Of a stretch of 64,000 nt of DNA, positions 6,571 to 41,546 are shown in pieces. Origin of the DNA: Oligoflexales bacterium. GTDB taxonomy: Bacteria > Bdellovibrionota_B > Oligoflexia > Oligoflexales > RGVZ01. The notes below the pieces were generated by a model that saw nothing but the letters and a program-made list of their open reading frames with translations, searched no databases and had not been told where the DNA came from. The position numbers and the translations under genes were made by a program. Each line of letters starts with the position of its first letter. Position 1 is the stretch's first letter. Location of the stretch: NCBI GenBank assembly GCA_947479535.1, contig CANJZQ010000001.1, forward strand, positions 142,324 to 206,323. The letters run 5' to 3'.

Positions 6571-6625
6571 GGTGTCCACTTTCCGGCTATACTGGTCCAA
6601 AGAGAACTTCTTACGGGTTTACTGA

Positions 6626-7381: not shown

Positions 7382-7396
7382 TGGAGGCGCGTGAAC

Positions 7397-7579: not shown

Positions 7580-7593
7580 AGGGGCAAGTCCAG

Positions 7594-8214: not shown

Positions 8215-8247
8215 CCCGACCGCTCCGGTGTGTTTCCCTAGGCCCCG

Positions 8248-9447: not shown

Positions 9448-9459
9448 TCAGTTTCACCC

Positions 9460-9488
9460 TTGATTTTTAGATGGTTGCACCCTATCTT
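9460..9488 (+). promoter_or_regulatory. Candidate sigma70-type promoter of the HU-like gene
   Basis: TTGATT (9460-9465), 17 nt spacer, TATCTT (9483-9488). It is embedded in a direct repeat, CACCCTTGATTTTTAGAT / CACCCTATCTTTTTTAGAT. Confidence 0.3.
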
Positions 9489-9530
9489 TTTTAGATCACG
9501 TACATCTGACATCCATGGAGGAGCAAAAAG

Positions 9531-9947: not shown

Positions 9948-9980
9948 TCGTGGTTCGCTAATTTCGTTCAGACACGGAAT

Positions 9981-10020
9981 TAAAAAAGAAGCCAGGCAGC
10001 AATGCCTGGCTTCTTTCATT
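9981..10020. terminator. Bidirectional rho-independent terminator
   Basis: Perfect 11 bp stem GAAGCCAGGCA (9988-9998) / TGCCTGGCTTC (10003-10013) with loop GCAA. An A-run precedes it and TTTCATTTC follows. It sits between convergent genes. Confidence 0.85.
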
Positions 10021-10037
10021 TCATCAGAGTGCAATGA

Positions 10038-10637: not shown

Positions 10638-10700
10638 GAAAATCCTTAGGTAATCCAGGGTGTTGACGCTGTTTGCGCCGCAATCTGTTTCGATGCACTT

Positions 10701-12029: not shown

Positions 12030-13360
12030 AAGCGATCCTCGAGCTCAGCAACCGATTTTGCGATTCCTGCGGTGATGATTTCGTGTCCTGATGCGGTGAT
12101 CAAGACATCATCTTCGATCCGGATCCCGATTCCCCGAAATGCAGCCGGTGCAACTTCGTCAGAGGGATCGACATAAAGGCCGGGTTCCACGCTGAAGTAC
12201 ATTCCTGGTGCCAGGGCGATGGGTTTTTCGTTTTCGGTGTAGTCGCCCACGTCATGCACATCCATGCCAATCCAATGGCTGGTGTTGTGGGGAAAAAATC
12301 TTTTGTAAGTCTGATTTTCTTTTATTTCGTCGCGCGAGCCTTGGAGCAGTTTGATCTCACGCAGCCCGTCAACCAGAACGTTTAGTCCGGCCTCGTGGAT
12401 CGCGGGCAGATTGCTGCCTGGTTGTGCAACCGCAATGGCGGCTTCCTGGGCCGACAAAACGATTTCATAAAGGGCTTTTTGTTCAGGCGTGAACTTGCGT
12501 CCAATGGGGAAAGTCCGTGTGACGTCGGAGGCGTAATAATCACGCTGGGCACCGGCATCAACAAGCAGAAGATCACCGTCACGGAGTTTCATGTTGTTAC
12601 TGCGGTAATGAAGGACGCATGCATTTGCCCCGCCAGCCACGATTGAACCGTAGGCTTCCATCTCGGCGCCGTTGCGCAGGAATTCACCGAGGATCAGTCC
12701 GTGGACATCACGCTCGGATTGGCCGGGGCGAACCGTATCGTAGATTTTTTTAAAAGTGGCTCGCGTCACTGCCGCGGCCGCACGCATGCGGTCCACCTCC
12801 TCGCTTGACTTGCGCAGGCGCATTTGTCCGGCAATACCCCAGGCATCCAACACCGGCAGCTGCCATCCTCGCGTGCGTCCGATCAGGCGCTTGTGACGTC
12901 CAATGGCAGCGATGACCTGCTCGTCGTCATGCGGGCTCGTCCCAAAATGGTAATAAAGGGTTTCAGCCTGACCCAGAAGTTGTGGGAGCATCGTCCACAA
13001 CTGGTCGATCCGAAAGGCCTTGTCGACTCCGATTCGAGAGGCGGCTGCCGCTGTGCCCAGGCGCAAACCCTCCCACAGCTCAACCGCTGGATCTTTTTCG
13101 CGTACGAACAAGATCATCTGTTCGCCTTCAGCTGCCTTCGGCAAAAGAAGCAGCGCCGATTCGGGCTCTTCGCATCCCGTCAGGTAATGCATGACGCTGT
13201 CTTGGCGGTAGGAATGTTCGACGTTGCTGTTTCGCAGTGCCGTCGGTTGGGCGATGACGAGCATGGCTCCACCGTTAAGCAGGTGCAGGCATTTTTCCAT
13301 CCTGGCGCGATAGTTGATCGGAGCAATTTCAGAAGAGTCAGTTGATTTGATATTAGTCAC
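12026..13360 (-). CDS. pepP: Xaa-Pro aminopeptidase (M24B, PepP)
   Basis: Motifs LLLVDAGAQRDYYASDVTRTFP, HNTSHWIGMDVHD, SVEPGLY and GIRIEDD (metal ligands). GTG 13360 gives 444 aa. The track start 13501 adds a Pro-rich, probably non-coding, extension. Confidence 0.85.
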   Translation of the reverse strand: MTNIKSTDSSEIAPINYRARMEKCLHLLNGGAMLVIAQPTALRNSNVEHSYRQDSVMHYLTGCEEPESALLLLPKAAEGEQMILFVREKDPAVELWEGLRLGTAAAASRIGVDKAFRIDQLWTMLPQLLGQAETLYYHFGTSPHDDEQVIAAIGRHKRLIGRTRGWQLPVLDAWGIAGQMRLRKSSEEVDRMRAAAAVTRATFKKIYDTVRPGQSERDVHGLILGEFLRNGAEMEAYGSIVAGGANACVLHYRSNNMKLRDGDLLLVDAGAQRDYYASDVTRTFPIGRKFTPEQKALYEIVLSAQEAAIAVAQPGSNLPAIHEAGLNVLVDGLREIKLLQGSRDEIKENQTYKRFFPHNTSHWIGMDVHDVGDYTENEKPIALAPGMYFSVEPGLYVDPSDEVAPAAFRGIGIRIEDDVLITASGHEIITAGIAKSVAELEDRF

Positions 13361-13509
13361 GGGATCCGCCTTTTTTGATCCACCTGTTTTTGCTGTTTTT
13401 ATCCAATATGGCAAGGGGAAGGCAGGGAAACTCAAGATCAGAAGGCCAGGAATCTGCAGGGCCGGGGGTAGGTAGGGGGGGAGACCGGCCCCCGCAAACA
13501 ATCTTGCAG

Positions 13510-13653
13510 AAAGAGGGGGGCCAGTCTTGCAGCCTTGGTGGCAGCGGTCTTAAAAGACCGTCACCTCCGTGCTACTGGTACAACAACCTTGAACCATGAG
13601 CACCACCTCCTCTCCTGGACCTTGGTCCATGGGGCATTTTCCAGCCCCTCTTT
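13510..13653 (-). other. Structured non-coding element (candidate sRNA or leader) with 15-codon mini-ORF
   Basis: AAAGAGGGG (13510-13518) is complementary to CCCCTCTTT (13645-13653), and CCAG pairs with CUGG. There are internal hairpins. Two GGAGGTG motifs lie on the minus strand, one 8 nt before ATG 13597 (MVQGCCTSSTEVTVF, stop at 13550). Confidence 0.3.
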
Positions 13654-14248
13654 ATATTTTAGCAAATAGATTATCTTTGTAGAACTTAAGCTCTTCGATG
13701 CTCTCGCGTATGTCATCGAGAGCGCGGTGATTTCCCTTTTTTTTCGCCTTTTTATCAAGAATGCCAGGGTGCCACCTCCGGGCAAGTTCCTTGACCGTGC
13801 TGACGTCAATCATCCGGTAATGCAGGTATTGATCGATCGGTTTCATGTACTTTGCGATGAACCGACGGTCCTGCCAGATCGAATTTCCGCACAATGGACT
13901 TTTGCGTGGCTGGCTGTGCTGTTTGATGAAGTCCAGGGTCTGACGTTCGGCCTCATCGAGGCTTAAGGTTGAATCAAGAACGGCGCTCCATAGTCCGGAT
14001 TTCCTGTGGTGTTCACGGTTCCAGTCGTCCATGCCCTCGAGAAGTTCCTTCTCGTGATGGATCACGAGTTCTGGGCCTTCTGCGATGATTTCCAGGGATC
14101 CTGTGGTGATGATGGTCGCGACCTCAAGGATGACATCCTTTTCAGGTTCGAGCCCGCTCATCTCCATGTCGATCCAGATCAGAGGTGCATAGGTTTCAGC
14201 ACCCGGTATTTTTTCTTTGCTGGCGTTTTCCATGTTTGTCCTGTCCAT
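13652..14248 (-). CDS. orn: Oligoribonuclease
   Basis: Motifs LIWIDMEMSGLEP (DEDD exo I), CGNSIWQDRRF and HRALDDIRESIEELKFY (exo III). Length is about 197 aa. Confidence 0.9.
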   Translation of the reverse strand: MDRTNMENASKEKIPGAETYAPLIWIDMEMSGLEPEKDVILEVATIITTGSLEIIAEGPELVIHHEKELLEGMDDWNREHHRKSGLWSAVLDSTLSLDEAERQTLDFIKQHSQPRKSPLCGNSIWQDRRFIAKYMKPIDQYLHYRMIDVSTVKELARRWHPGILDKKAKKKGNHRALDDIRESIEELKFYKDNLFAKI

Positions 14249-14256
14249 GCCGTTCG

Positions 14257-15006
14257 TTACTTTTCATCGATGTTGAATTGAAAAACTGGCGCACGCCACG
14301 CAATCCATTCGAAAATCTCGTTAACTTGGGCGCCAGCGACGTGAATCTTTACAGAAGGATCGTGCTGAATATTCCGGATCACGGACAGTTCTGTGAATTC
14401 AGTTGTCAAAAAATTAGTCCAACCCCCGGCGCTGTCGCTCCACCCTCGGGCACCTGCCCTGAGAACCGCCTTGTGAAAATCTTCTTCACTGGATTTTGGT
14501 GCTTTTTTTACCAGAATGTTTCCCACCCGGTGGCCCAGATAGTCCGGATAATCTTTTTGCCCGAGGTTTGCCACCATGGATGAGTTCAGCGCACTGGTTT
14601 TTAGATCAATTGGGAGGTTCACCAAGAAATGGTGGTTTGGTGACCTTATGACTGCGCGGGCCCATGCATCCTGCGGGGAGGCCTCGGGAACAGACAGCCA
14701 GAACGTGACTTCTCCATCGCCGAAAGCATTTTCATGCAGTCCGATGGATCCAGCATAGGTCCTGACGAGGTGCCTGATCCGGTCCCGGTAAGCCTCTTTT
14801 GGAAAACTTGTGGTCGTCTCATCGATCCTGAAAATATACGCCTCGTCAGTCTCGCAGACTTGGACCGCTGGATCGGGGTCATCTGACGGAATTCCCGTGC
14901 AGTTGGTTCCGGCAAACGCCGCACCCGGCGTTGCTGCAGCCAATGCCACCAACCCCATGCTGAGCAAGCTATTCCTGATTCCATCTGAAGCTTTTGAACC
15001 CTGCAA
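14257..15006 (-). CDS. Hypothetical secreted protein
   Basis: Signal-like SLLSMGLVALAAATPGAAFA. No family recognised. Confidence 0.5.
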   Translation of the reverse strand: MQGSKASDGIRNSLLSMGLVALAAATPGAAFAGTNCTGIPSDDPDPAVQVCETDEAYIFRIDETTTSFPKEAYRDRIRHLVRTYAGSIGLHENAFGDGEVTFWLSVPEASPQDAWARAVIRSPNHHFLVNLPIDLKTSALNSSMVANLGQKDYPDYLGHRVGNILVKKAPKSSEEDFHKAVLRAGARGWSDSAGGWTNFLTTEFTELSVIRNIQHDPSVKIHVAGAQVNEIFEWIAWRAPVFQFNIDEK

Positions 15007-22812: not shown

Positions 22813-24555
22813 ATGGCTAAGATTGCTTTGATTGCGGGAAAGTTGGAACAGGTTCCTGTGATGCATGTGTTTTCACGCATGGCCTCAGTTCACGAGATTC
22901 GCATCCACGCTTTTCTTGGTTCCATACCGGATTCCATGCGCAATTGTGGGTTCGCATTCAGCCTTTATGAAGCGGATCCGACAAGGGCTGGTTATATGTC
23001 TGGATTGGAAGATCAAATTGCAGACGCGGATCTAATTGTCGTGGCAGGGCCGGAGAACCTCTCCTCGTTTCAGGCAATGCGCTCTGCCTTGAAGAATAAT
23101 ATTCATTGCCACGTAATTTCATTTGATCTTGTTCCCCAGCCATTTGATGATTTCGTAAATATCCGGGCCATCCGCCAAGATGTTTTGAATCGCTGCCAGA
23201 TCATATGGACGACTGGCGAGCGGTCCATTGAAGCCCTGACATTTGAAGGGTATGAGCTTCAGCGAATCCACAACTTGCCGGCTATTTTTGATGGGGAATC
23301 TTTCCCGTTGGATGCTTTGCGCAGCAATAAGTTCAGAGACCATGTTGGAATCAGCCGGGATTCTTTTGTGGTTCTTTTTCAGGATGTGCTTGATCACAAA
23401 GGTGCTGCTGGGGAGTTAGTCAAGGCATTGCATGCACTTCGGGCATCCGGTAACCCTGACTTTGAAAGGTTAGTGGTCTTGTTTTCTGGTCAACGCGAGG
23501 GTTCGGAACCTTTAAAATACATGATTTCCGATTGGCGTCTCTCCAGTCACGTCAGGTTTCTTCATCAGAATAGCTCTGAATTTACTTTGGACTTGTTGAA
23601 TGGAAGCGATCTTGTCGTCGGACCCTGTCATGGTCGGTCAAGCGAAGCACACGTCTTGGCAGCGATTTCCAGTATGGTCGGAGCTCGTCCCCTTCTGAAT
23701 GTTTCACAAACGACAGGCGGTTGGCTTGACATGCCGTGCTTGAGTGTCTCTGAGTACACCAGCCTTCCTCTCGCAAAGGCCATCAAAAACGGTTTGGCCA
23801 CCAGTGATTCAAGGTTGGAGCGGCGTGAGAACTTTCTCAAAGTGATTAGCTCTGCTGATCGGCAGATTGATTCTCAAAACTTCATAGACTTGATTCAGCG
23901 TTCAACGGTGAAATCAGCCTCTCAAAGCGCAACGGCAAAAGATCAATATCTTGAGCAGCAAGTTGCTACAGTTGAATCGATGGGTGCCGGTACATCGCTC
24001 GATGAGAGGTTGCATGCCGTTGAAGATCTTCTGTTGCGTGAACCACCACCTCCACTCGCAGCAAGGGCCCATATGTTCAAGGGGTCTGCTCTGTATGCAG
24101 CGGGTAATTACGAGGCAGCGACCGATGCCTATCGCGCAGCATTGCTGTCCATGCATGGTGTACCAAACGGAGAAAGTTCGCCTCAGCCGCGTTCATTGAT
24201 TTCCAGCTGTTACCGGGGGCTGGGGAATGTTGCAGCCGCGGTTCAATCCCATCAAGAAGCACTCGATCTCTACCGGCGCGCCCTTGCCTTGGAACCACAA
24301 GATTCCCTCACTTGTGCGGGCATCGGAAACGTCTACCGTCGTCTGCGTCTTTATGATGAGTCGCTGCATTGGTTGGCGAAATCGGCTTTGTCGACGCCCG
24401 GTGACGAGTCTGCATTGACGCGCTTTTCTCAAGTCCTTCTTGAGTGTCCAGAAAAACCTGTGGCCGCAAAAGCCTTGATTGACGTCCTTCAGGTGGTTGG
24501 CGAGCATCCCTCGCTAGCGAAAGCGATGGTCAGCCTGGATGTTCGTCTGGATTGA
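22813..24555 (+). CDS. GT-B glycosyltransferase-like N-terminal region fused to C-terminal TPR repeats
   Basis: GGGAGG SD. The middle segment FVVLFQDVLDHKGAAGELVKAL..LVVLFSGQREG..SDLVV resembles a GT4 C-domain, but the catalytic motifs are unclear. C-terminal TPRs (AYRAALL.., YRRALALEPQD). Confidence 0.5.
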   Translation: MAKIALIAGKLEQVPVMHVFSRMASVHEIRIHAFLGSIPDSMRNCGFAFSLYEADPTRAGYMSGLEDQIADADLIVVAGPENLSSFQAMRSALKNNIHCHVISFDLVPQPFDDFVNIRAIRQDVLNRCQIIWTTGERSIEALTFEGYELQRIHNLPAIFDGESFPLDALRSNKFRDHVGISRDSFVVLFQDVLDHKGAAGELVKALHALRASGNPDFERLVVLFSGQREGSEPLKYMISDWRLSSHVRFLHQNSSEFTLDLLNGSDLVVGPCHGRSSEAHVLAAISSMVGARPLLNVSQTTGGWLDMPCLSVSEYTSLPLAKAIKNGLATSDSRLERRENFLKVISSADRQIDSQNFIDLIQRSTVKSASQSATAKDQYLEQQVATVESMGAGTSLDERLHAVEDLLLREPPPPLAARAHMFKGSALYAAGNYEAATDAYRAALLSMHGVPNGESSPQPRSLISSCYRGLGNVAAAVQSHQEALDLYRRALALEPQDSLTCAGIGNVYRRLRLYDESLHWLAKSALSTPGDESALTRFSQVLLECPEKPVAAKALIDVLQVVGEHPSLAKAMVSLDVRLD

Positions 24556-29094: not shown

Positions 29095-30018
29095 ATGGGT
29101 CTGAGAATCAGAACCAACGTCCAGTCATTGGTGGCTCAAAGGCATTTTGGCACGTCCACCAAGGGTGTTGCAGCCCAGACGGAGAAACTTTCCTCTGGAT
29201 TCAGGATCAACAAGGGTGCCGATGATGCTGCTGGATTTGCAATCGCCGAGGGTTTGAAGGGTGATATTCGGGCTCTTGGCCAGGCTCGTCGCAACGCCAA
29301 TGATGCTGTCTCCCTCGTGGAAGTTGCGGAAGGCGGCCTCGACGAGATCAATAACATTATGATCCGTTTGCGCGAGCTTTCAGTCCAGGCTGCCTCTGAT
29401 ACCATCGGAGCCCGTGAGCGCGGTTACTTGAACGAAGAGTACATGGCCCTCAAAGACGAGATCGACCGGATAGCGGTCTCAACTGAATTTAACGGTACGC
29501 GTTTATTGACTGGACAGAAGGAACTCGATCCTTCGCTGCTATCGGAACACAACTATTCCCCCCTCGAAGTCCAGGTCGGCAAGGATTACTTTCCCGGGCC
29601 AGACGCATTGTCTACTCCCAATCCGATTAACATAATCCGGATGAACCTTGGTAATTTCAACGCATCCACGGAAGGCGAAGATTCCCTTGGCCTCGGCAGT
29701 GCCCAGAACTCTGAAGGCTCCCGGGTGAATGACAAGGTCGCGGCGCAAAACGCCATGATGGTAATCGATAATGCGATGAACAAGATTGCCTCCTATCGCG
29801 GCACTTTAGGCGCGACTCAGAATCGATTCCAGAGTACGGACCGTAACCTTGGCATTCAAATTGAAGCATTGACAGCCGCCCGTTCACGGATCAAAGACGC
29901 CGACTTTGCGATGGAATCAGCGGAACTTGCGCAGCAGAGTATTTTGCAGCAAGCTGGCGTGTCGGTGTTGTCGCAGGCCAATCAGTTGCCAAATATTGCA
30001 CTAAAGCTACTTCAGTAA
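29095..30018 (+). CDS. fliC: Flagellin (short, 307 aa)
   Basis: N-terminal MGLRIRTNVQSLVAQR..LSSGFRINKGADDAAGFAIAEGL and C-terminal TLGATQNRFQST..SILQQAGVSVLSQANQLPNIALKLLQ conserved D0/D1 helices. GAGGGAG SD. Confidence 0.9.
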   Translation: MGLRIRTNVQSLVAQRHFGTSTKGVAAQTEKLSSGFRINKGADDAAGFAIAEGLKGDIRALGQARRNANDAVSLVEVAEGGLDEINNIMIRLRELSVQAASDTIGARERGYLNEEYMALKDEIDRIAVSTEFNGTRLLTGQKELDPSLLSEHNYSPLEVQVGKDYFPGPDALSTPNPINIIRMNLGNFNASTEGEDSLGLGSAQNSEGSRVNDKVAAQNAMMVIDNAMNKIASYRGTLGATQNRFQSTDRNLGIQIEALTAARSRIKDADFAMESAELAQQSILQQAGVSVLSQANQLPNIALKLLQ

Positions 30019-30019
30019 T

Positions 30020-32557
30020 TTAACGCAGATCGATCAAGGCTTTTAACTTGCCGGTGCGGCTCACCCGTGTGATGCCGCCGCTGGCGTGCGCCACGACTAG
30101 GAGTCGTGGAGACACCCAGGCCCGGGGGTGCTGCGCCTGCAGGTCTTTTGAGTGGCTGTAAACCAAGTCGACAAGAGACCCCTCTTTCAATTGTTCAGCG
30201 TTCTCATGCTCAACATGAAATTCGATGGTTTCCCGGGCTGACTCATCCTGTTTCAGGATAATTTGAAACATGGCCCCGTCCAGATTGCAGTCTGCCAGCG
30301 CTTTTTCAAAGTCATTGATGAAAAGACGACACGCCCAGACATTGAATTGACTGTCTGATCTACCGAGCAAACGGAATCTGACATCGCTGCTTCCGCACTC
30401 GCAATCACCATGTTTCTCAGCAATCCACTCCAAAAGGTCTCCGGTACAGAGACGGATGATGGGCATTTTCTTTTTGATGCGAGATGTAACAACGCCTTCA
30501 CCGTTTATGATTTCGAGATGAACACAGTCTGAAAATAAATGATGAATTCCATCAACGCTGAATCGACACTGATAGCCGATTGGACCTGCGTCGACCGAGG
30601 CGTAACCTGCCGATCCAAAATAGGTGGTTCCTGCAACTGTACCAAGAAATTTTCTTGCGACGACACTGAGATGTTCTCCCGCGTACAACACTGCCGGCAT
30701 GGAAATGGTGCGTCCCGTTTCCTTGGCGTGCCGTGCAAGTTCCACTAGCTGTGTTGGCAAGCCAACGACAAACTGAGGTTGGAATCGCTCAAGGTAAGTC
30801 AACGTTTGGTCTTTGTCTGCTAGACCTCCAATGGGCAAAACCGTGGCGCCGATCTTTGCCATGGCTTGATCCACTGCCATGAATGACGACCAAAGGTTTC
30901 CTGCAACAAAAAGATTCGCCACTACGATCCCCGGGACTATGCCTTGAGCCCGAAATCCAAGCGCCAGTAGTTCTGCCACCTGACTGAATTCATCGTGTGT
31001 GTAGATTGCATATTTTGGAGCGCCCGACGTGCCACCAGATGAGAAAATATAGCCACCCCTCACCAGATCATTAGTCGCCTTGTGGGTGAATCGCGACAGT
31101 TTCTCCCCGTTCGCAGTGTCGAGGTCTGCCCCCTTGATCAGTGGCATGTCGGTGATTTTGGTTACCAACTTGCCTTCCCGCAACTCACGATAGAATGGAA
31201 CGTTTGAAATGGCGTCATTCGCCAAACCTTCAAGTGTCCCGTCGAGTTCTTCCGGAACGATTCTGGTCAACTCAACGAGGGTCATTTTTCCATCATGTGG
31301 CGCTCCGATCGGCGCTTGCATGACTTGACCGAGCTGGGCAAATCGCATCACACCCATGGCGCCCAATGCGGCAATCATGGTCTGCTTTTCGGCATCCGTT
31401 GCGAGAAGTGAGCATGATTGCAGATAGCGCGCAAATGGGGAGAGCTGTTTTTTCAGATCATCAAGTGAATCGTAGGTTTTGCAGATCAGACTCCGGTTTA
31501 GTGGTGACGTGCGAAGTCCCGGACTTGGATCGTAGTGCAGGAGATAGTCTTTTCCGTTGCGAAAATCGCCGCCATTTTCGATCTTGTTGTATTGTGCTCT
31601 CGCGAGTTCCTTCAAAATCTCGACATGCTCATCGTCCGAGAGGCGCCCGCGGGCGTATTGGAAGTTTTGCAGGGCAATTTCTGTGTGGTTCATGAGTCCT
31701 GCGATGTCGGCTCCACGCTCGATGAACAGATTTTGGGGCGATGCACATGCCGCCTGATCCCACATGGCGATGTCCTGTGCGACCCAGGCGCCGGCCTGAG
31801 CCAAACCATGGCGTTCAAGGGCATCGCGCGTGATGGTTTGAAATGAAATTTTGGGACCGTACTCAATGAATTTGACGCCTAAAGGGAGCCCCTTTTTGTA
31901 GGAGTGAATCATTTCCTCCCCACCCCAGGCGATGATTCCGTTGGATTCCCTTTTGATCAAGGACTCCACAGCCTGTATCCCACTGGGAAAGTGAATCAGG
32001 GCGAACTTGTCACTCAAAATCCCCTCGTGATCGATATCCCTGATGGACTCTGCAAACAGCATGGGAAAAGACAGGTTGCGTGAGCTGAGTTTTACGAGCG
32101 ACACATTTTTTGTCAGGAAGCCCATCAGGAGTGAATCGATGGCTCCAAGGAATACGTTCCCGGCAGAAACGTGAAATAAAATCCCGAGAGGGAATGCACG
32201 CTCCATCCCGCCAAACGCATGGCTTTTGACGAATCCGTCAAGTTTATCCGGTCCGCCAAAGTCTGCTTTGATTCGTGCGCCGATGTTCCGTGCATTCAGA
32301 AGTTCAGGAATGACGTCCAATGAATGAGCGATCATGTCATCACTGAACGGGACTTCGTTTCTGGTCAAATCAAAGGCGCGGGACCAATAGTCCGAACCAT
32401 GCACCCAGGCGTTGCTCAGACGATCCAGCACATCCACGATTTTCCGAACCGGTTGAGAAACCATCGCGGGGCAGCGGAGGCGGGCATCAAGAAAGGCCTT
32501 TGTCAGAAACGCCTCATCGCAAACAGCGTGTGGGGTTTCATTTCCGAAGAGATACAT
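30020..32557 (-). CDS. Fusion protein: LuxC-type acyl-CoA/acyl-protein reductase domain plus PaaK/F390-synthetase-like adenylating domain
   Basis: The N-terminal ~470 aa carries WDQAACASPQNLFIE (ALDH-type catalytic Cys, ~31740-31768). The C-terminal ~375 aa carries FSSGGTSGAPKY (~31020-31050). GGAAGGA SD; starts 3 nt after the luxE-like stop. Confidence 0.7.
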   Translation of the reverse strand: MYLFGNETPHAVCDEAFLTKAFLDARLRCPAMVSQPVRKIVDVLDRLSNAWVHGSDYWSRAFDLTRNEVPFSDDMIAHSLDVIPELLNARNIGARIKADFGGPDKLDGFVKSHAFGGMERAFPLGILFHVSAGNVFLGAIDSLLMGFLTKNVSLVKLSSRNLSFPMLFAESIRDIDHEGILSDKFALIHFPSGIQAVESLIKRESNGIIAWGGEEMIHSYKKGLPLGVKFIEYGPKISFQTITRDALERHGLAQAGAWVAQDIAMWDQAACASPQNLFIERGADIAGLMNHTEIALQNFQYARGRLSDDEHVEILKELARAQYNKIENGGDFRNGKDYLLHYDPSPGLRTSPLNRSLICKTYDSLDDLKKQLSPFARYLQSCSLLATDAEKQTMIAALGAMGVMRFAQLGQVMQAPIGAPHDGKMTLVELTRIVPEELDGTLEGLANDAISNVPFYRELREGKLVTKITDMPLIKGADLDTANGEKLSRFTHKATNDLVRGGYIFSSGGTSGAPKYAIYTHDEFSQVAELLALGFRAQGIVPGIVVANLFVAGNLWSSFMAVDQAMAKIGATVLPIGGLADKDQTLTYLERFQPQFVVGLPTQLVELARHAKETGRTISMPAVLYAGEHLSVVARKFLGTVAGTTYFGSAGYASVDAGPIGYQCRFSVDGIHHLFSDCVHLEIINGEGVVTSRIKKKMPIIRLCTGDLLEWIAEKHGDCECGSSDVRFRLLGRSDSQFNVWACRLFINDFEKALADCNLDGAMFQIILKQDESARETIEFHVEHENAEQLKEGSLVDLVYSHSKDLQAQHPRAWVSPRLLVVAHASGGITRVSRTGKLKALIDLR

Positions 32558-32560: not shown

Positions 32561-33709
32561 TCACATCCTTCCGGGAGTTTCGTCAAGTAGCTTGGAAGCA
32601 GTCAATGCACAGCCTTTGTGTTTGTGAACGCCGGCACGTCCAAGGATTTCGAGTGTCGCTCCCCCAATGCCGCAGTCACATTCTCCGATGCGCCCATAAT
32701 CCGTCGTCAAAAGGCTGATGCTTGGATAGCTGGTTACATAGGAGCAAAGGAAATGAATCAGGCCAGTATCGCCGTTTGAAACCACGCTAAAATCTTTCGG
32801 CGAGCGAATATAAACCCTGGCATAATTCGGTATGTGAAGATGCCCTCTGGAGCAGTCACAATAAGGGATTCCGTGTTCTACCATTCCAAACATGTCCCGG
32901 TTGTTGGATGCCGGAATCCCAAGCCTGTCTGTCATGAAGTTTCGAAAATCCGCCTTTGGGACCTCCTCGTTGGTAAATCCCTTCCATCCTCCTCCAGTTT
33001 GAATCCAACTGTTGGTGGGGAGTCGCAACTTGATATTGTTGTCGCGCACGATTTTGTACAAGTGTGCAGGAAACCCCAATATCCGGACGGGCTTCGGTGA
33101 GGCTGCGTAGCGCTCAAGGGTTTCGATGACCCCCTTGACGTTTAAAGAGAAGTCATTCTTGGCCTGATCCCATTGGATCGCATAGTAGACCTCGTTTTTT
33201 TTTGTGAAACTTGTGAGCAATTCATCCGTGAAGGCTGTGCCAAGGTTAGTGGCAACCTTTGGATCGTAAGTAAAACAAAGGTAATTCACTTCGTCCTCGG
33301 ACGTCATGCCCAGGGCGTCATGGATCATCCACGCCAGTTTTTTTACGCGAAGCAGCGACTGGTGATCGAGCAGTATCTGGCTTTTCTGTCCGCTTGTTCC
33401 GGAACTTGTAAGATTCAGGACGACATCGGCAGGCGATCCCGTGATGAGTTCGTGCTCTTTAAAAAGGTTCACCATGATGGGTGGTACGCGAGTCAAGTCG
33501 TGTTCCGATTTAATATCGGCGGGCTTGATGCCTGCAAGATCCCACAAGCCGCGGAAGTAGGAGTTTCCTTTGTAGTGAACTTCAGCACACGTTACAAAAC
33601 TTTCACGAAAAAACGCCTGGGATTCTTTGGAATTGTCGAATGGATTGCTTGAAAACAATCGATCGATACCAGAGTGGATCTGGTCTGATGTTTGCTTTGC
33701 CGGTGGCAT
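32561..33709 (-). CDS. LuxE-type acyl-protein synthetase
   Basis: LTSSGTSGQKSQI adenylation loop (~33380-33412). Overall length is ~380 aa. A Cys lies in HKGCALTAS about 15 residues from the C-terminus. ATG is 1 nt after the upstream stop. Confidence 0.7.
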   Translation of the reverse strand: MPPAKQTSDQIHSGIDRLFSSNPFDNSKESQAFFRESFVTCAEVHYKGNSYFRGLWDLAGIKPADIKSEHDLTRVPPIMVNLFKEHELITGSPADVVLNLTSSGTSGQKSQILLDHQSLLRVKKLAWMIHDALGMTSEDEVNYLCFTYDPKVATNLGTAFTDELLTSFTKKNEVYYAIQWDQAKNDFSLNVKGVIETLERYAASPKPVRILGFPAHLYKIVRDNNIKLRLPTNSWIQTGGGWKGFTNEEVPKADFRNFMTDRLGIPASNNRDMFGMVEHGIPYCDCSRGHLHIPNYARVYIRSPKDFSVVSNGDTGLIHFLCSYVTSYPSISLLTTDYGRIGECDCGIGGATLEILGRAGVHKHKGCALTASKLLDETPGRM

Positions 33710-33710
33710 G

Positions 33711-34871
33711 CTAGGGCTCCATGGTCTGATGCGGCTTCAGGAATTGCTCTTGAATGTTCCGGATATATTCCTCGAGGTAGATTCGATTCTTACCTGCCAG
33801 TTTTAAATGTCGGAAATCGAGTATTTCAAATGTCCTGCTGAGAACAACGAAATCATACCGGTGACTGCCGTTGAGTTGAAACGCGGGGAAGTATGCGCAG
33901 GGTAAAAACCTGGCACGAAGCACCCGTTCAATGGTTTTTGCCTTGTCAGCCCGGACAAGGATTTCAAGGTACCGGACCCCGATCGTGTTCAGGAGCTTGA
34001 CCGATTGCTCGAGGATGTCTGCAAAGTCATATTCCCGCGGCTTCTTTACGCCCATGATCACACAATGATCATCAACCTCAGACTTGTAGACGAATATCTC
34101 CACCGTTTGGCATGGTGAGCTGATCACCATGTTCGGTGAGTGGAATGGATAGAAGTGGGCGTGGAGAAGGTCTTGATCCCGCTGCCCTTCAAAACGGCAC
34201 CTTGCAAACCTTTCCGCTTGGATCAGTTCAAGCTTTATTGAGTCTGGATAATCGTTCAACGCCAAATCCGCCTCATTGGCTGGAGTGAGCCGCGCCAATG
34301 TGCATTCTGTACGCACGATTTCATAAAGATTTATGATTGCCGGATGCAACCGGAAATCCTGGAACCTGGCCCAAAGTGCTTCGGTCGTAAAAAATGCAGT
34401 CAGGCAATGTGTTTCATAAACATCCGTCTTGTGAACGTTTGGGAAAATGCCAAGCTTTTTGTACCCAAGGTGTTCCGTTACGATTTGGGGGGCAGGGCTC
34501 GAAGTTCGTGTGGTCGCATAGATGACGTCTACGATGCCAAGGGTATTCGTGAGGTGTTCTTGGGCAAAAACCATCGCACGTTCAAGGATCCGGTAGCCCC
34601 GGTACGTCGACAGCACTGCCCCTCCAAATGCCCGGGCCAAGCGGTGCAACTTGTCGCTTTCATATACGACGGAGCCAACAATCTGTCCTTGTTCCTCGGC
34701 AATAACCCAGACATTAGCCGGGTCTTCAAGGAATTTTGTCAGGAGGCCTGTATCTCGCATCAAGCGGTTGGTATAATTTCCACCATAGACCAATTGATAC
34801 AAAACAGAGATGCCGGTTGCATCCTGCGGAGTTGCAAGACGAAGGTTTGGTGTCAGCAACTTTGTTGTCAT
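33711..34871 (-). CDS. GNAT-like acyltransferase domain protein (386 aa)
   Basis: ATG 34871 (MTTKLLTPNLRLATPQD). VWVIAEEQGQIVGSVVYE..VLSTYRGYRILERAMVFAQEHL resembles GNAT motif A. The C-terminal half is unassigned. The track start 34967 would overlap the divergent MFS gene. Confidence 0.5.
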   Translation of the reverse strand: MTTKLLTPNLRLATPQDATGISVLYQLVYGGNYTNRLMRDTGLLTKFLEDPANVWVIAEEQGQIVGSVVYESDKLHRLARAFGGAVLSTYRGYRILERAMVFAQEHLTNTLGIVDVIYATTRTSSPAPQIVTEHLGYKKLGIFPNVHKTDVYETHCLTAFFTTEALWARFQDFRLHPAIINLYEIVRTECTLARLTPANEADLALNDYPDSIKLELIQAERFARCRFEGQRDQDLLHAHFYPFHSPNMVISSPCQTVEIFVYKSEVDDHCVIMGVKKPREYDFADILEQSVKLLNTIGVRYLEILVRADKAKTIERVLRARFLPCAYFPAFQLNGSHRYDFVVLSRTFEILDFRHLKLAGKNRIYLEEYIRNIQEQFLKPHQTMEP

Positions 34872-34935: not shown

Positions 34936-36201
34936 ATGTCGCGAACGAGTAACCTGTTGATCCGCAATCGCGACTTTCGGCTCGTCTGGTGCAGTCAGGT
35001 TTTAAGTCAAGCGGGCAGCCGCGCCTTTTTTATTAATTTGCTGTGGTGGATTATCAGTTCTGCGCCAGAGGTTCGTGGTGGAGGGTCTGCCTCGACTTGG
35101 GCCAGCGGCATACTTTTGACTATTCTAGGTTTGCCTTCGGTTCTTTTGGTTCGGTGGATAGGGAGGGTCCTTGAACGTTATTCTTCACAGAAGATTATGG
35201 TTTTTTGCGAAGTGGCGGGAGCCCTGTTGTCGTTGGTGGTTTTTGGTCTGTCCGTCTCTGGGAACCTCACGCTCGGGTGGGTTTACGGTCTGTCGGGTTT
35301 GATTGCCCTGTGCCAGGCGCTGGTTGATCCAGCCCTCGTGAAGGTTGTTCCGGAGCTGGTCGAGGAAGCTGATATCGAGGCGGCAGTTGGACTTGAGTCG
35401 TCGACCCAGGCGCTAGCCTATTTCTCTGGTGCAGCAATCGGTGCGATTGCAAGTGGAATCCTCGGATTTTCAGTGACCACCGCGATCAACGCACTCAGTT
35501 ACGGGGTGTCAGCGTTTATGACATCGCGTGCTCGATTCCGTCCGAGTTCCATTGCAGCGAATCACGAATCTACGGAACGTGGGTTGTCAAATGTGCCGAG
35601 TTCGCAGGATGGTTGGGCCAACCAGGTTGGCCCACTGCTAAAGGCATTTGGTGCGGCAAATGTTTTCATGTTCCCTATTTTCCTTGTTCTGCCACTTTTT
35701 GTGAAAGATTCGCTGCAAGGTAGCGTTATTGTCTTGGGTCTTCTTGAATCCTGTTTTTGGTTTGGATTGGTAGCAGGCGCAAATCAGGCTTGGCGACTTG
35801 ACGCTGAGGGCAGGTTCTTGAAGATGTCAGCGATTCTATTTTTTCTTTTTGGTTCGCTGATCTGTAGTATTGCCCTTAATCCATCAGTGGTCTGGGTGGC
35901 GGTTGTGCTGGTATGCGGTGGGATAAGCGCTGGCCTGGTGAATGTTAAAGTAATCACTTACTTCCAAATTGTCGTGCCCGAATCTGCGAGGGCTAAATTT
36001 TTCGCCCAGCTTCAAGCCTATGTTGCTGGAGCTCAACCTTTGAGCTACTTGCTGTTTACAGGGATCCTTCTCGTTCTTTCCCCGGTGCACTCATTTGCGC
36101 TCATTGGATTCGGCTTGGCGATGGTTGGTGCATTTTGCTGGTGGTACGAAAAACGCATGATAAAGTTCAATGCGGCAAAATTACTGGAGATTGGCAATTG
36201 A
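34936..36201 (+). CDS. MFS transporter
   Basis: About 12 predicted hydrophobic helices in a two-halves layout (LVWCSQVLSQAGSRAF.. N-terminus). 421 aa. Confidence 0.8.
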   Translation: MSRTSNLLIRNRDFRLVWCSQVLSQAGSRAFFINLLWWIISSAPEVRGGGSASTWASGILLTILGLPSVLLVRWIGRVLERYSSQKIMVFCEVAGALLSLVVFGLSVSGNLTLGWVYGLSGLIALCQALVDPALVKVVPELVEEADIEAAVGLESSTQALAYFSGAAIGAIASGILGFSVTTAINALSYGVSAFMTSRARFRPSSIAANHESTERGLSNVPSSQDGWANQVGPLLKAFGAANVFMFPIFLVLPLFVKDSLQGSVIVLGLLESCFWFGLVAGANQAWRLDAEGRFLKMSAILFFLFGSLICSIALNPSVVWVAVVLVCGGISAGLVNVKVITYFQIVVPESARAKFFAQLQAYVAGAQPLSYLLFTGILLVLSPVHSFALIGFGLAMVGAFCWWYEKRMIKFNAAKLLEIGN

Positions 36202-39351: not shown

Positions 39352-40521
39352 ATGAGATGCGCGAGAAGAACCATTCGAATAATGCGGGCTGTGGCTTTGT
39401 TCACGGCCGGCATTTTTCTTTTTGAATTTGGGGCAGTTCTTGCGGCGGTTATCAAGTCCGCGCCTTTGCAGCCAGCATCTTCGCGTGGTGATATTGAGAA
39501 AAGTTCGGCAACATCGACGGACCATTTGCCTGTGTCGGATGAAAAATCAATCGGACTGGAATTCCGTCCTCGTGTCGAAATTGAGTCGTCGAGGGTGATG
39601 CTTGATCAGATCGCCTTCTGCGTCCCCGCGCGAACCAGGCATCATGATTGCGCTGAGATTCTCGCTGTTGATGCTGGTCCAGCGCCAGCGCCTGGAAAGA
39701 CTGCAAGAATTAGCCGGGCAGGGATTTTGGAAATTCTGACCAATGAGTTCCCCGGCACAAGGGTCGAAGTCCTCGGGCCTGAAAGTTCATTTGTAAGTTC
39801 ACGCGGAATTTCTCTGGCTGATGAGGCCCTCGCAGTTCCTTTTCGTGAACAAATCGATGAGTTGTTTTCGGGTGCTGCGGACTTTCGGATCCAGGTTTCT
39901 GGAGTTCGTATTGAATCGCGGCCCCAAGTCCGTCCAGGATCCATTAGTTGCCGCTTCGCACAGCTGGACCTTTTAAAGCGCAGGATGGCAGAGCCATCGG
40001 GTGCGTCAATTGAATCAGATCTCGAGAGTCTTCTGACGCGAATTCACAATGGCGCGCAGTTCAATGCGCAGTGCATGCAGCCAGGCACTGAGGTAGGTGA
40101 GGCCCAGTTCTACGTGCAGTTTTCGCCAAGGATTATTGTAGAGCGGCAGATGCCATTAGCCCGCAGGGATCTTGCGGCCAAGACAGTTTTTGCGGTTGAG
40201 GATTCCGTGCTGGGTTGGGTTCCCTGGACGCGGAGTGCTGGGCGCGCACTCCGTGATGCAAGCTCGTTGGCAGGCATGTCCCTGCTTCGACAGGTGCAGG
40301 CCGGTCAGATGCTGATGTTCAATGATTTCGAAAGGCCTCTTGCCGTCCGGCGTGGTGATAGCGTTCAGCTGATGCAGAAGTCTGGCGAACTAACCATCTC
40401 TGGGAACGCAATTGTGATAACCCAGGGTGCAATTGGTGAACGCATTGAAGTTCAAACAACTGCAACGAAAAAGCGCCTCCGGGCGGTTGTTCGGTCGAAC
40501 AGCGCTGTGGAGGCAATGTGA
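39352..40521 (+). CDS. flgA: Flagellar P-ring assembly chaperone FlgA (enlarged)
   Basis: C-terminal SAF-type region VRRGDSVQLMQKSGELTISGNAIVITQGAIGERIEVQTTATKKRLRAVV. Position is between flgG and flgH. N-terminal signal/anchor. 389 aa is unusually long. Confidence 0.6.
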   Translation: MRCARRTIRIMRAVALFTAGIFLFEFGAVLAAVIKSAPLQPASSRGDIEKSSATSTDHLPVSDEKSIGLEFRPRVEIESSRVMLDQIAFCVPARTRHHDCAEILAVDAGPAPAPGKTARISRAGILEILTNEFPGTRVEVLGPESSFVSSRGISLADEALAVPFREQIDELFSGAADFRIQVSGVRIESRPQVRPGSISCRFAQLDLLKRRMAEPSGASIESDLESLLTRIHNGAQFNAQCMQPGTEVGEAQFYVQFSPRIIVERQMPLARRDLAAKTVFAVEDSVLGWVPWTRSAGRALRDASSLAGMSLLRQVQAGQMLMFNDFERPLAVRRGDSVQLMQKSGELTISGNAIVITQGAIGERIEVQTTATKKRLRAVVRSNSAVEAM

Positions 40522-41546
40522 AGTTTTTCCCAATTAAATTCCTTCATCCGTTTCTGCTGTTTACGGCGGCTTTGGGTGCTGGCTGTCAGACCTCTCACGT
40601 TATTTCTGAACGCCCAGTGGATCCAGTTATCGCTGGTGTTCAGGATCAGAATCTGGTCCCTCACGGACCGGGGGCTCCAGTTCCGGAGAGGCAGGATGTC
40701 TTTCTTCGCGAACATCGTACCGTTATCTCTGAGGCGCCACGTGATCCCGATCAAACCGGGTCTCTTTTTTCCCTGGACGACTCGCGTAGCAACCTCATTG
40801 TTCACAGTCCATTGCGTGCGGGAATGCTGCTCGATATTAAAGTCTTAACATCGCGTTCGCCGGCTGCTGGAGACCAGTCGAAGGCTCAGAGGGGGTCAAG
40901 CAAGACCGGGGATGTGGGGGCCGGATCCGAAGGTTTATCTGCCGCATTGCCGAAACTTGAGCCGACGGTCGCCGGGGCGGGGCCTCTAAAGTCGTTCAAA
41001 ATGCGATTAGACTCAATCCTTCCAAACGGCGATGGGATGGTGTCGGTTACCCGGCGCTCCAGTCGGACCGGGGACTTTCATGAAGTCTATGCCAAGGCCA
41101 GGATTCCGGCAGAACAAATGATTCCCGGGGCAGAGTTGAGCACGTCGAATTTATTTGATGTTGCGTGGATGGATTTTGATGGGTCCCAAACCACGGAGCG
41201 TCATTCCACGGCTTGGGAGGACGAATATTCGCTGCGCCTCAGCGGTTTTGAGGAATTAAGGTCAAAAGAAGCTCTTGCCGTGGAGGAGGGGCGTCGCCAG
41301 GTTCAAATTGAAAAGGACAAGGTTTCGGAGGAAACGCGAAGGATGACCGACGAGCGTGCCCGGTCGGCAAAACAGCGGGATGAATTGCAGCAGAAACTTC
41401 GAGAGGCTGAGGCCAAAATCTCCGAGCTCCAGAAGGGTGCGGCCGCAGCCCTGACCAATGGCGCTCCAGCAACATCACCAGTGCCTCCAGCACCGCCAGC
41501 GGGAGCTCAAGCAGCGAATGGAGGCTCGAATGCGCAGAAGAAGTAA
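40518..41546 (+). CDS. flgH: Flagellar L-ring lipoprotein FlgH with C-terminal coiled-coil/Pro-Ala extension
   Basis: GTG overlaps the flgA stop (GTGA). Lipobox LGAGC. Motifs GSLFSLDDSRSNL..LRAGMLLDIKV and ILPNGDGMVSV fit FlgH. The last ~100 aa are a charged heptad-like region plus PVPPAPPAGAQA. Confidence 0.7.
   Translation: MKFFPIKFLHPFLLFTAALGAGCQTSHVISERPVDPVIAGVQDQNLVPHGPGAPVPERQDVFLREHRTVISEAPRDPDQTGSLFSLDDSRSNLIVHSPLRAGMLLDIKVLTSRSPAAGDQSKAQRGSSKTGDVGAGSEGLSAALPKLEPTVAGAGPLKSFKMRLDSILPNGDGMVSVTRRSSRTGDFHEVYAKARIPAEQMIPGAELSTSNLFDVAWMDFDGSQTTERHSTAWEDEYSLRLSGFEELRSKEALAVEEGRRQVQIEKDKVSEETRRMTDERARSAKQRDELQQKLREAEAKISELQKGAAAALTNGAPATSPVPPAPPAGAQAANGGSNAQKK

Follow-up and report, generated by a model that had tools for sequence, protein, structure and literature searches.

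Leupeptin, a protease inhibitor with two peptide bonds, an acetyl cap and one C-terminal aldehyde, reportedly comes from an operon of Klebsiella, Photorhabdus and Xenorhabdus that Li et al. are said to have described in 2020 as encoding "discretely expressed ligases and accessory enzymes". To our knowledge, descriptions of this NRPS-independent route are limited to a few Gammaproteobacteria. Locus data for leupABCD and its MFS gene are available from Klebsiella michiganensis/oxytoca (PMC8283571; bioRxiv 10.64898/2026.08.25.747093). Related enzymes form the LuxC-LuxE fatty acid reductase of bacterial bioluminescence (7xc6; PMC9157457), in which the DQQAC cysteine of Photobacterium phosphoreum LuxC is Cys296 and the KGCSLS cysteine of its LuxE is Cys364 (PMC9157457).

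Judged by sequence, the leupeptin operon leupABCD of Klebsiella, and not lux, is the closest characterised system to the cassette analysed here. The cassette lies in a window of 64,000 nucleotides (the whole stretch of DNA that was analysed) from an Oligoflexales bacterium and consists of a tandem GNAT gene, a LuxE-like gene and, last, a gene for a fusion of LuxC with a PaaK-type ligase, beside a divergent MFS gene (Table 1). We found the link through tblastn matches on plasmids and the leup primers of PMC8283571. In locus L093 the published primers leupA_f and leupB_r both match, at the spacing of 1235 bp given in PMC8283571; the locus encodes an MFS protein, a LuxE-like protein, an 801-aa LuxC and AMP-binding fusion, a stand-alone PaaK-like ligase and a GNAT, the same five leup components that are listed in bioRxiv 10.64898/2026.08.25.747093. 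The window proteins are homologous to all four Leup enzyme types. The fusion aligns collinearly with Klebsiella LeupB (27% identity over 758 aa, E 2e-59, BLASTP) and has the same two Pfam domains and the common motifs DQxAC, SGGxSGxPK, VDAGPxG and GKxxxxIDxR; the LuxE-like protein aligns with LeupA as far as the tail motif GRAxxxKxxxCAL (36% identity, E 1e-70); the fused ligase domain aligns with stand-alone LeupC (27% identity, E 1e-22); and the GNAT profile aligns with the N-domain of LeupD (95.8% probability, E 6.9e-9, hhalign). Both sets combine a LuxE-like protein with a C-terminal cysteine tail, a fusion of N-terminal LuxC and C-terminal PaaK-type ligase, a GNAT and an MFS transporter, with no NRPS genes in either. 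They differ in that identity reaches only 27–36%, stand-alone LeupC is absent from the window, the window GNAT is a 386-aa tandem protein encoded first whereas LeupD has 305 aa and is encoded last, the window host is of Oligoflexia/Bdellovibrionota type whereas the leup host is a gammaproteobacterium, and the window product is predicted to be one residue shorter. Because identity to the Leup proteins is so low, the window enzymes could act on other substrates or even use another class of nucleophile.

Number of PaaK-type modules separates the two clades: leup has two, with a product of two peptide bonds, and the window clade has one. Searches of the 64-kb window by tblastn and blastp with LeupC, Massilia and Streptomyces queries for a LeupC-type second ligase returned only the fused domain, and no extra stand-alone ligase was found in 82 related loci. 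Uncharacterised clusters of Streptomyces sp. NBC_01426 (plasmid NZ_CP109501.1) and Massilia sp. DJPM01 share with the window the same tandem type of GNAT, a LuxE, the fusion and a homologous MFS transporter, but they carry an additional stand-alone PaaK-like ligase that the window lacks, and their fusions group with LeupB (38–42% identity) and not with the window (26–27%). The clade with a second ligase (Klebsiella, a Salmonella plasmid, Streptomyces and Massilia) shows 38–66% identity within itself and 26–28% to the window clade.

The window fusion is a single polypeptide with intact catalytic motifs in both its LuxC half and its ligase half. Its frame runs from an ATG through all 845 aa without interruption, and since the gene is on the minus strand, the protein begins with LuxC and ends with the adenylating domain. 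The earlier note had proposed just such a fusion beside a retained LuxE-like gene, unlike canonical lux systems, in which LuxE and LuxC are separate subunits; Pfam, NCBIfam, PDB and AF2/Foldseek results confirm the two domains in one frame, the separate LuxE-like gene is present, and the distinction from lux is correctly drawn. The boundary that it placed at about 31150 shifts by ~90 nt, to a linker that follows the Pfam LuxC match and precedes helix 1 of the N-terminal microdomain of PaaK type, as modelled by AF2. The LuxC half matches LuxC 7xc6_A in both the PDB search (aa 97–442, E 1.2e-17) and Foldseek (TM 0.74). Similarity of the C-terminal half to adenylating families, likewise claimed, is borne out by PaaK/F390/DVU1553-type NCBIfam models spanning aa 442–845 (best E 1.5e-25), an AMP-binding Pfam match at aa 503–644, PDB matches of aa 450–845 to the PaaK structures 4r1l and 2y4o, and Foldseek matches of the domain to PaaK1, BT_0428, NatL2, AjiA1 and ClxA; the model of the whole fusion (pLDDT 88.4) matches PaaK1, BT_0428 and LuxC 7xc6. 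Cys271 aligns to the DQQAC cysteine of P. phosphoreum LuxC and is invariant in 44 homologues, in which G508 and G509 of the phosphate-binding loop are also invariant and S507, T510, G512, P514 and K515 are conserved in ≥90%. Lys837, aligned to the GK lysine of PaaK2, is likewise invariant among homologues. Fusing the last ligase to the reductase would hold consecutive steps within one complex.

Table 1. Features of the cassette and its divergent transporter gene (window positions)
Feature	Position	Strand	Details and evidence
MFS (MFS_1/MFS_3) transporter, divergent, probable exporter	34936..36201	+	Pfam, neighbourhood, homology
Tandem-GNAT acyltransferase CDS	33711..34871	-	386 aa from ATG 34871; Pfam, AF2, Foldseek, hhalign
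LuxE-like acyl-protein synthetase CDS, LeupA homologue	32561..33709	-	382 aa; PF04443 E 7.5e-51
Cys367 codon, C-terminal tail GRAGVHKHKGCALT, predicted self-acylation site	32609..32611	-	Alignment with LuxE
LuxC::PaaK-type ligase fusion CDS, LeupB homologue	30020..32557	-	845 aa, single frame from ATG
LuxC-type acyl-thioester reductase domain, aa 35–432	31262..32455	-	PF05893 E 1.5e-66 (Pfam)
Cys271 codon, WDQAAC motif, predicted acyl-accepting catalytic cysteine	31745..31747	-	Alignment with LuxC
Short inter-domain linker, aa 433–441	31235..31261	-	End of Pfam LuxC match to first helix in AF2 model
PaaK-type ANL adenylating/ligase domain, aa 442–845, C-terminal subdomain complete	30023..31234	-	NCBIfam, PDB, Foldseek
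Phosphate-binding loop FSSGGTSGAPK, aa 505–515, ligase domain	31013..31045	-	Alignment with PaaK SSGTTGKP
Lys837 codon, RTGKL motif, catalytic lysine of ANL C-terminal subdomain	30047..30049	-	Alignment with PaaK2

The fusion is genuine and widespread. That an assembly or sequencing artefact joined two separate genes is vanishingly improbable: nothing was found in favour of it, several separate assemblies encode the identical 845-aa protein (12 contigs in all), at least 153 species have collinear full-length homologues, and the junction aligns in 44 homologues and is modelled confidently by AF2. More than 120 full-length homologues (40–87% identity) have the same collinear architecture, which together with the 12 identical contigs excludes a lost stop or frameshift for practical purposes. 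At 50% identity, 328 clusters reach E<1e-30 against the fusion, and triple LuxE-LuxC-ligase fusions exist among related loci. The fusion, called unusual in the earlier note, is not rare; besides its spread over at least 153 species, it forms part of a pathway that has been characterised genetically. No direct precedent emerged when the literature was searched for LuxC-PaaK fusions.

The partner genes are tightly packed with the fusion. A gap of 1 nt separates the GNAT stop from the start of the LuxE-like gene, which itself ends 3 nt upstream of the fusion gene; its product matches 7xc6_E in the PDB search (E 5.5e-25); Cys367 aligns to the KGCSLS cysteine of P. phosphoreum LuxE, and a basic-x-Cys motif stands in the tail of 73/77 family members. 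The mechanical ORF of the GNAT gene reaches further than the CDS given in Table 1, to TTG 34967. Pfam gives a weak GNAT match at aa 40–126 (PF00583 is matched by 38/46 homologues), and the AF2 model (pLDDT 91) has two GNAT-like halves, with Foldseek matches to ArsN/PAT/SpeG and to the tandem GNAT 2wpw. Over its full length the protein is 27% identical to its Streptomyces counterpart in the leup-like cluster and 45% identical to that of Massilia. The pyrophosphate-binding loop is non-canonical (RGYRIL; the ArsN counterpart is RRSGIA), and this, with an architecture unlike that of LeupD, makes the acyl donor uncertain. The window MFS protein is 31% identical over 390 aa to the MFS protein inside the Streptomyces leup-like operon. 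Transporter genes of this family adjoin or sit within the cassette in the window, at loci L005 and L008 (both divergent, as in the window) and in Massilia, Streptomyces and Klebsiella; a transporter next to the cassette is absent at most window-clade loci.

Conservation of the operon extends to three genes. In 69/82 related loci from many phyla, the genes for GNAT, LuxE and the fusion stand side by side in one orientation, with exceptions mostly at contig ends. Clustering of flanking ORFs found no other conserved neighbours common to several phyla, and flanking synteny (H+-PPase, 2OG-Fe(II) oxygenase, YcaO and others) is specific to Bacteriovoracaceae. In the window, the 3' end of the fusion gene and the stop of a flagellin gene are 1 nt apart, within a flagellar gene region, and a gene resembling TPR-glycosyltransferases lies 4.5 kb away. 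A scan for promoters and terminators gave no promoter-like sites and terminator-like sites at chance level.

Other known systems share folds and motifs with the cassette and differ in composition. The LuxC-LuxE fatty acid reductase has the same fold, a two-cysteine relay from the LuxE tail to LuxC and the GGGWK lysine loop; in the window, LuxC is fused to an extra ANL domain and no luxA, luxB or luxD was found among the ORFs scanned. We scanned with Pfam ~43 of the 72 mechanical ORFs of ≥150 aa (window ~8.2–9.4 and 10.7–63.4 kb, likely coding strand), and none of these ORFs matched a luciferase-like monooxygenase (luxAB), LuxD or paa catabolic genes. Scores against the LuxC equivalog NF052251 (84.3 bits; cut-off 750) and the LuxE equivalog NF052244 (110.9 bits; cut-off 550) fell far short, and a long-chain fatty acid is an unlikely substrate of the window LuxE and LuxC. 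Synthesis of a lux-type fatty aldehyde was rejected on these scores, on the lack of luxABD matches among the scanned ORFs and on the closer relationship of the proteins to LeupA and LeupB. As the fusion is a distant relative of LeupB, the cassette most likely makes a peptide aldehyde instead. Members of the PaaK family (PaaK1/2, BT_0428 and the CoA-independent NatL2, AjiA1 and ClxA) share with the window domain the fold, the N-terminal microdomain, the C-terminal subdomain and the P-loop, TGD, GR and catalytic-lysine motifs, but the window domain is fused behind LuxC and its A5-like motif is unusual (GSAGYASVDAGPIGYQC). Gene sets of V. cholerae O1 RfbK-O and of flagellin islands likewise add an acyltransferase and a second adenylating enzyme to a LuxC/LuxE pair (RfbN being itself a putative LuxC-LuxE fusion). 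These sets have ACP, FabG or alcohol dehydrogenase, and glycosyltransferases, whereas no gene for an ACP, a 3-oxoacyl-ACP reductase/alcohol dehydrogenase or a glycosyltransferase is adjacent to the window cassette. A dicarboxylate model of RfbK-O type, in which one carboxylate is reduced and the other activated for N-acyl transfer, found no specific support given the leup homology.

We propose with moderate confidence that the GNAT, the LuxE-like protein, the LuxC–ligase fusion and the divergent MFS transporter form a minimal NRPS-independent pathway of leup type, whose product is probably a small N-capped peptide aldehyde. The leup operon has LeupB and one further ligase, and leupeptin has two peptide bonds and one aldehyde; the most natural role for the PaaK-type modules is therefore that of ligases forming amides, with LuxE alone feeding the reductase. 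Domain content, along with the reported account of Li et al., suggests this assignment of steps to the individual Leup enzymes. Precedent exists in the CoA-independent ester- or amide-forming enzymes of PaaK fold among the structural matches (NatL2, AjiA1 and ClxA). By analogy, the tandem GNAT would N-acylate a first amino acid, with acetyl-CoA as the probable donor; the fused PaaK-type domain would adenylate the acyl-amino acid and make a single peptide bond by joining it to the amino group of a second amino acid; the LuxE-like enzyme would adenylate the new C-terminal carboxylate and transfer it to its own tail Cys367; the acyl group would pass from there to LuxC Cys271, where the thioester would be reduced with NAD(P)H to the aldehyde; and the MFS pump would export the product. 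Architecture, conserved catalytic residues, operon conservation and homology to the Leup enzymes are observed; that the PaaK-type domain acts as an amide ligase is inferred, as are the sequence of steps, the dipeptide length and the identity of cap and residues. The earlier note had instead seen two carboxylate activators feeding one reductase, which is unsupported, as the collinear LeupB operon has one further PaaK-like ligase. Its suggestion of a ligase step after reduction survives in part: ligation itself is retained, but it has to come before reduction, because an adenylating enzyme requires a carboxylate.

Different roles for the PaaK-type domain predict different products. Were it a true acyl-CoA ligase, a non-acetyl acyl-CoA (aryl-acetyl or short acyl) would be passed by the GNAT to a single amino acid, which LuxE and LuxC would convert to an N-acyl amino aldehyde with no ligase-made peptide bond. 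Every gene would have a role, acyl-CoA is the normal GNAT donor, and in sequence and structure the domain is matched best by the CoA ligases PaaK1/2, BT_0428 and HCL. We nevertheless consider this unlikely: leupeptin has an acetyl cap, and nothing in leup but the two PaaK-type modules is a candidate for making its two peptide bonds; a distinctive motif common to LeupC and the fused domain, G-x-A-x-VDAG-x-IG, stands in place of the usual A5 motif; and all PaaK equivalog scores lie far under their cut-offs (TIGR02155, 58.8 vs 646 bits; NF041878, 89.7 vs 700). Catalytic residues are kept in both activating enzymes, and LuxC takes both acyl-LuxE and acyl-CoA donors (PMC9157457), as would suit a scheme in which LuxE and the fused domain activate different acids (say, a fatty acid in one case and an aryl or amino acid in the other) and deliver both to the single LuxC cysteine, giving two aldehydes. 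Such a scheme is quite improbable, since it leaves the strictly co-conserved GNAT without a role and conflicts with the leup operon, which makes one aldehyde and has a further ligase; moreover, the number of PaaK-type modules varies by clade while LuxE and LuxC stay single.

The flagellar surroundings of the window, with the abutting flagellin gene and the TPR-glycosyltransferase-like gene, would fit modification of a flagellin or other surface glycan, as in the flagellin glycosylation islands of Aeromonas and enterobacteria or in V. cholerae RfbK-O tetronate synthesis, and such islands are known to encode homologues of LuxC and LuxE together with an additional AMP-dependent synthetase (PMC4875605, PMC7874193, PMC4772473). 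However, flagellin adjacency is confined to the window and its 87%-identical relative (1/82 related loci), no ACP, FabG, nonulosonic-acid or further glycosyltransferase gene occurs among the Pfam-scanned ORFs, and the window proteins are nearer to LeupA and LeupB than to any other described set. A glycan role is thus highly improbable, and with no conserved adjacency and no glycan genes among the scanned ORFs, lipidation of a flagellin glycan was set aside as the main model.

Peptide aldehydes of leupeptin type are protease inhibitors in wide use. Tentatively, the single-ligase cassette may be an undescribed minimal route to acyl-dipeptide aldehydes, or to pyrazinones from cyclised uncapped dipeptide aldehydes, that is widespread in predatory Bdellovibrionota (Bacteriovoracaceae, Halobacteriovoraceae, Peredibacter and Oligoflexia) and in poorly known phyla (Elusimicrobiota, Eremiobacterota/Xenobia, Muiribacteriota, Armatimonadota and Riflebacteria). 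It could also supply the genes still missing for orphan compounds of the acetyl-dipeptidyl-argininal kind, thiolstatin and the bacithrocins among them, and possible roles are those of a protease inhibitor or a signal in predation or competition. Peredibacter sp. HCB2-198, Massilia sp. DJPM01 and Streptomyces sp. NBC_01426 offer cultured hosts for experiments; the Peredibacter cassette lies between 409209 and 431530 of NZ_CP174607.1. If the proposal is true, the labels "acyl-CoA reductase (bioluminescence)" and "phenylacetate-CoA ligase" on these genes could be corrected, and the number of PaaK-type modules would provide a simple and testable rule for peptide length. The same enzyme logic, in single-ligase form, would then be present in >150 species, many of them predatory or uncultured, as an untapped source of small protease inhibitors or pyrazinone signals.

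Several kinds of evidence place a LuxC reductase and a PaaK/F390-like adenylating domain in a single polypeptide, the architecture suggested by the earlier note: Pfam, NCBIfam, PDB sequence matches and AlphaFold2/Foldseek agree, and a separate LuxE-like gene is retained directly upstream of the fusion (see table). The adenylation-family similarity sought in the C-terminal half is present, with a best NCBIfam E of 1.5e-25 and every model far under its equivalog cut-off. Among PDB sequences the N-terminal half resembles 7xc6_A, the LuxC of the Photobacterium LuxC-LuxE complex (E 1.2e-17), and the C-terminal half phenylacetate-CoA ligases (4r1l, 2y4o, 2y27). The AlphaFold2 model, with 44 homologues as input (mean pLDDT 88.4), matched PaaK1, BT_0428, HCL and LuxC 7xc6_A in Foldseek, together with NatL2, AjiA1 and ClxA, which are CoA-independent PaaK-family enzymes. 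The domain boundary, earlier put near 31150, shifts by about 90 nt according to the HMMs and the model.

Features of the window cassette and of related loci
Feature	Position	Strand	Details
Fusion CDS	30020-32557	-	845 aa, ATG start
LuxC domain PF05893	aa 35-432 of fusion	-	Pfam, E 1.5e-66
AMP-binding, partial match	aa 503-644 of fusion	-	Pfam
PaaK-type adenylating domain	aa 442-845 of fusion	-	NCBIfam PaaK, F390-synthetase and DVU_1553-type models
Inter-domain junction	~aa 433-441 (nt 31235-31261)	-	
LuxE-like CDS	32561-33709	-	PF04443, E 7.5e-51; 7xc6_E, E 5.5e-25; 3-nt gap to fusion
GNAT CDS	33711-34871	-	386 aa; upstream of LuxE-like gene, 1-nt gap
MFS_1/MFS_3 transporter	34936-36201	+	divergent from cassette
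Streptomyces sp. NBC_01426 operon (L089)	6533-14166, plasmid NZ_CP109501.1		PaaK-family ligase, MFS, tandem GNAT, acyl-protein synthase (LuxE-like), 845-aa 'acyl-CoA reductase' (LuxC::ligase)
Salmonella enterica IncF plasmid CP053580.1 (L090)	8560-14302		acyl-protein synthase, 802-aa 'AMP-binding protein', PaaK-family ligase; conjugative plasmid
Massilia sp. DJPM01			order GNAT, MFS, LuxE, fusion, extra AMP-binding ligase
L093 MFS			cut
L093 LeupA			LuxE-family, 378 aa
L093 LeupB			801 aa, LuxC (E 8.8e-110) + AMP-binding
L093 LeupC			PaaK-like ligase, 446 aa
L093 LeupD			GNAT, 305 aa

The reductase and both adenylating enzymes look active, since their catalytic residues and motifs are conserved. 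In the alignment of 44 homologues, Cys271 (WDQAAC, LuxC domain), which aligns with the acylated catalytic cysteine of LuxC (PMC9157457), is invariant, as are the ANL motifs TGD705-707 and GR732-733 and the C-terminal Lys837; the phosphate loop (aa 505-515) is invariant or nearly so. The LuxE-like protein retains a GGGWK loop and the tail GRAGVHKHKGCALT, whose cysteine aligns with Cys364 of LuxE, and a basic-x-Cys tail motif occurs in 73/77 family members.

The fusion is not an artefact. Gene calls on 12 contigs give exactly this 845-aa protein; four of these places lie in ENA and Logan assemblies, each of a different sample. At 40-87% identity, over 120 protein clusters of similar length cover 95-100% of the query. 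HMMER, run exhaustively against 1.84 billion cluster representatives, recovered 328 clusters at E<1e-30, most of them 780-900 aa long and aligning from one end to the other. Scanning one genome per species found relatives in 153 stretches, the nearest (87%) in a MAG labelled Pseudobacteriovorax antillogorgiicola, which points to an Oligoflexia/Bdellovibrionota-type source for the window. Many belong to Bacteriovoracaceae, Halobacteriovoraceae and Peredibacter; further hosts are Elusimicrobia, Eremiobacterota/Xenobia, Muiribacteriota, Armatimonadetes, Riflebacteria and Burkholderiales. Two LuxE-LuxC-ligase triple fusions span 1276-1314 aa (L080, 7069-11013, from an Armatimonadetes MAG, and P0193, a 1276-aa metagenome protein). 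A 1244-aa LuxC::ligase homologue that continues into Clp_N and IspF (YgbB) domains (P0137) probably reflects gene-call read-through or a misassembly.

Leupeptin is acetyl-Leu-Leu-argininal: a single acetyl cap, two peptide bonds and a single aldehyde at the C-terminus. The fusion type is already known as LeupB, in the genetically characterised pathway for this compound. An exact-match metagenome scan with the leupA_f primer, from the published Klebsiella leupABCD coordinates and PCR primers (PMC8283571), returned 8 loci; in one (L093) the leupA_f to leupB_r amplicon is exactly 1235 bp, as published, and its five components are those also listed for K. oxytoca NC_016612.1 (bioRxiv 10.64898/2026.08.25.747093). 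LeupB aligns with the window fusion over 758 residues and both domains (27% identity, E 2e-59), LeupA with the LuxE-like protein (36%, E 1e-70), LeupC with the fused ligase domain (27%, E 1e-22; both carry an unusual VDAG-x-IG motif), and the LeupD N-domain with the window GNAT profile (hhalign 95.8%). We infer the roles of the individual Leup enzymes from their domain content.

Closer counterparts of the leup operon occur on plasmids, where tblastn found full-length fusion relatives in Streptomyces and Salmonella. The Streptomyces set (L089) is complete and leup-like (54%, 42% and 38% identity to LeupA, LeupB and LeupC), and its GNAT is homologous to that of the window over the full length (E 7e-37). 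Similar matches lie on other Streptomyces and Kitasatospora plasmids and the S. cattleya megaplasmid. An NRPS locus has been proposed for Streptomyces leupeptin (bioRxiv 10.1101/2020.10.26.356543), and the L089 set may bear on this unsettled gene cluster. The Salmonella proteins are 73%, 66% and 66% identical to LeupA, LeupB and LeupC; the leupD homologue there is probably a pseudogene because its coding sequence is broken between two frames (13434-13733 and 13685-14302), and the cluster adjoins HlyD and a peptidase-domain ABC exporter. The Streptomyces, Salmonella and Massilia gene set matches what leupeptin would need. Klebsiella, Salmonella, Streptomyces and Massilia fusions share 38-66% mutual identity, each beside a stand-alone ligase, whereas the window fusion shares 26-28% with all four. 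No second PaaK-type ligase was found in the 64-kb window or in 82 related loci. Counted by module, the leup operon contains two of the PaaK type, a single GNAT and a single LuxE/LuxC pair, and the window contains one ligase module. The simplest mapping would assign one such module to each peptide bond, and a single bond is therefore predicted for the window cassette.

GNAT, LuxE-like and fusion genes are neighbouring and co-oriented in 69/82 related loci with flanking DNA, and most of the other 13 are truncated by contig ends. The N-terminal half of the first of these proteins is a GNAT: the window protein itself matches weakly, and PF00583 is matched by 38/46 homologues. AlphaFold2 models the window protein (pLDDT 91) as a pair of GNAT-like halves; the model matches amino-acid/polyamine N-acetyltransferases (ArsN/PAT, SpeG) as well as tandem GNATs, 2wpw among them. 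Its CoA-pyrophosphate loop is atypical. Clustering of the other flanking ORFs across the 82 loci, which was spot-checked, revealed synteny only within Bacteriovoracaceae and none common across phyla. A divergent 276-aa 2OG-Fe(II) oxygenase (PF13532) lies just upstream of the GNAT gene in L006 (4827-5657) and about 31 Bacteriovoracaceae loci (for example L059, 6817-7776), and an ORF of about 186 aa, family unassigned, immediately follows the fusion in about 35 loci; these may reflect lineage synteny or be tailoring genes. In a Muiribacteriota MAG (L072, 12723-17796) the cassette is followed directly by a TetR regulator, an HlyD-type membrane-fusion protein and an ORF of 1030 aa that probably encodes an RND pump; this set would provide another export route where the MFS gene is absent.

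We propose that the GNAT would cap a first amino acid, which the fused ligase would adenylate and couple to a second. The LuxE-like enzyme would then adenylate the new C-terminal carboxylate and load it on its tail Cys367, from which, following the relay of the LuxC-LuxE complex (PMC9157457), the acyl group would move to Cys271 in the LuxC domain, and NAD(P)H would reduce the thioester to an aldehyde. The MFS transporter would export the product. Having the last ligase on the same chain as the reductase, with LuxE joined as well in some lineages, fits consecutive steps in one complex. Earlier enzyme work on Streptomyces roseus reportedly distinguished an ATP-dependent leupeptin acid synthetase from a leupeptin acid reductase that depends on both ATP and NADPH, a division of labour that fits this pathway. 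Left uncapped, the dipeptide aldehyde would form a pyrazinone by cyclisation, which the Klebsiella leup pathway is reported to do (PMC11480411). Identity to the Leup proteins is low, and we infer all five steps, with the ligase domain taken by analogy to be amide-forming rather than CoA-forming.

In the leading alternative, the GNAT would receive its acyl group from the ligase domain as a non-acetyl acyl-CoA, and the product would be an N-acyl mono-amino aldehyde. The earlier note instead had two carboxylate activators feeding one reductase, which leaves the GNAT without explanation and contradicts the leup precedent; its other suggestion, ligation after reduction, holds for the involvement of a ligase but not for the order, as ligation would precede reduction. 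A role in flagellin-glycan modification would draw on the adjoining flagellin gene, which is convergent with the fusion (stop at 30018, against a fusion stop codon at 30020-30022, 1 nt between) with no terminator-like hairpin at the junction (30018-30022). This adjacency lacks conservation, however: flanking flagellar genes are common only to the window and its 87% relative (1/82 loci). Pfam, run on about 43 of the 72 mechanical window ORFs of at least 150 aa, matched no glycan-precursor, ACP or luciferase gene; outside the cassette and flagellar genes, the ORFs with family matches are mostly housekeeping. A 580-aa protein (22813-24555, +), 4.5 kb from the flagellin gene, carries TPR repeats, matches Glycos_transf_1 weakly and might be an FlmG-like flagellin glycosyltransferase. 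A 342-aa ORF with no Pfam match (40518-41546, +) sits between FlgA-like and FlgI genes, where the L-ring protein (FlgH) is expected.

We found no description of a single-ligase, tandem-GNAT cassette in the searchable literature. Relative to the leup operon, the window carries a divergent variant of this kind, widespread in predatory and little-studied bacteria.
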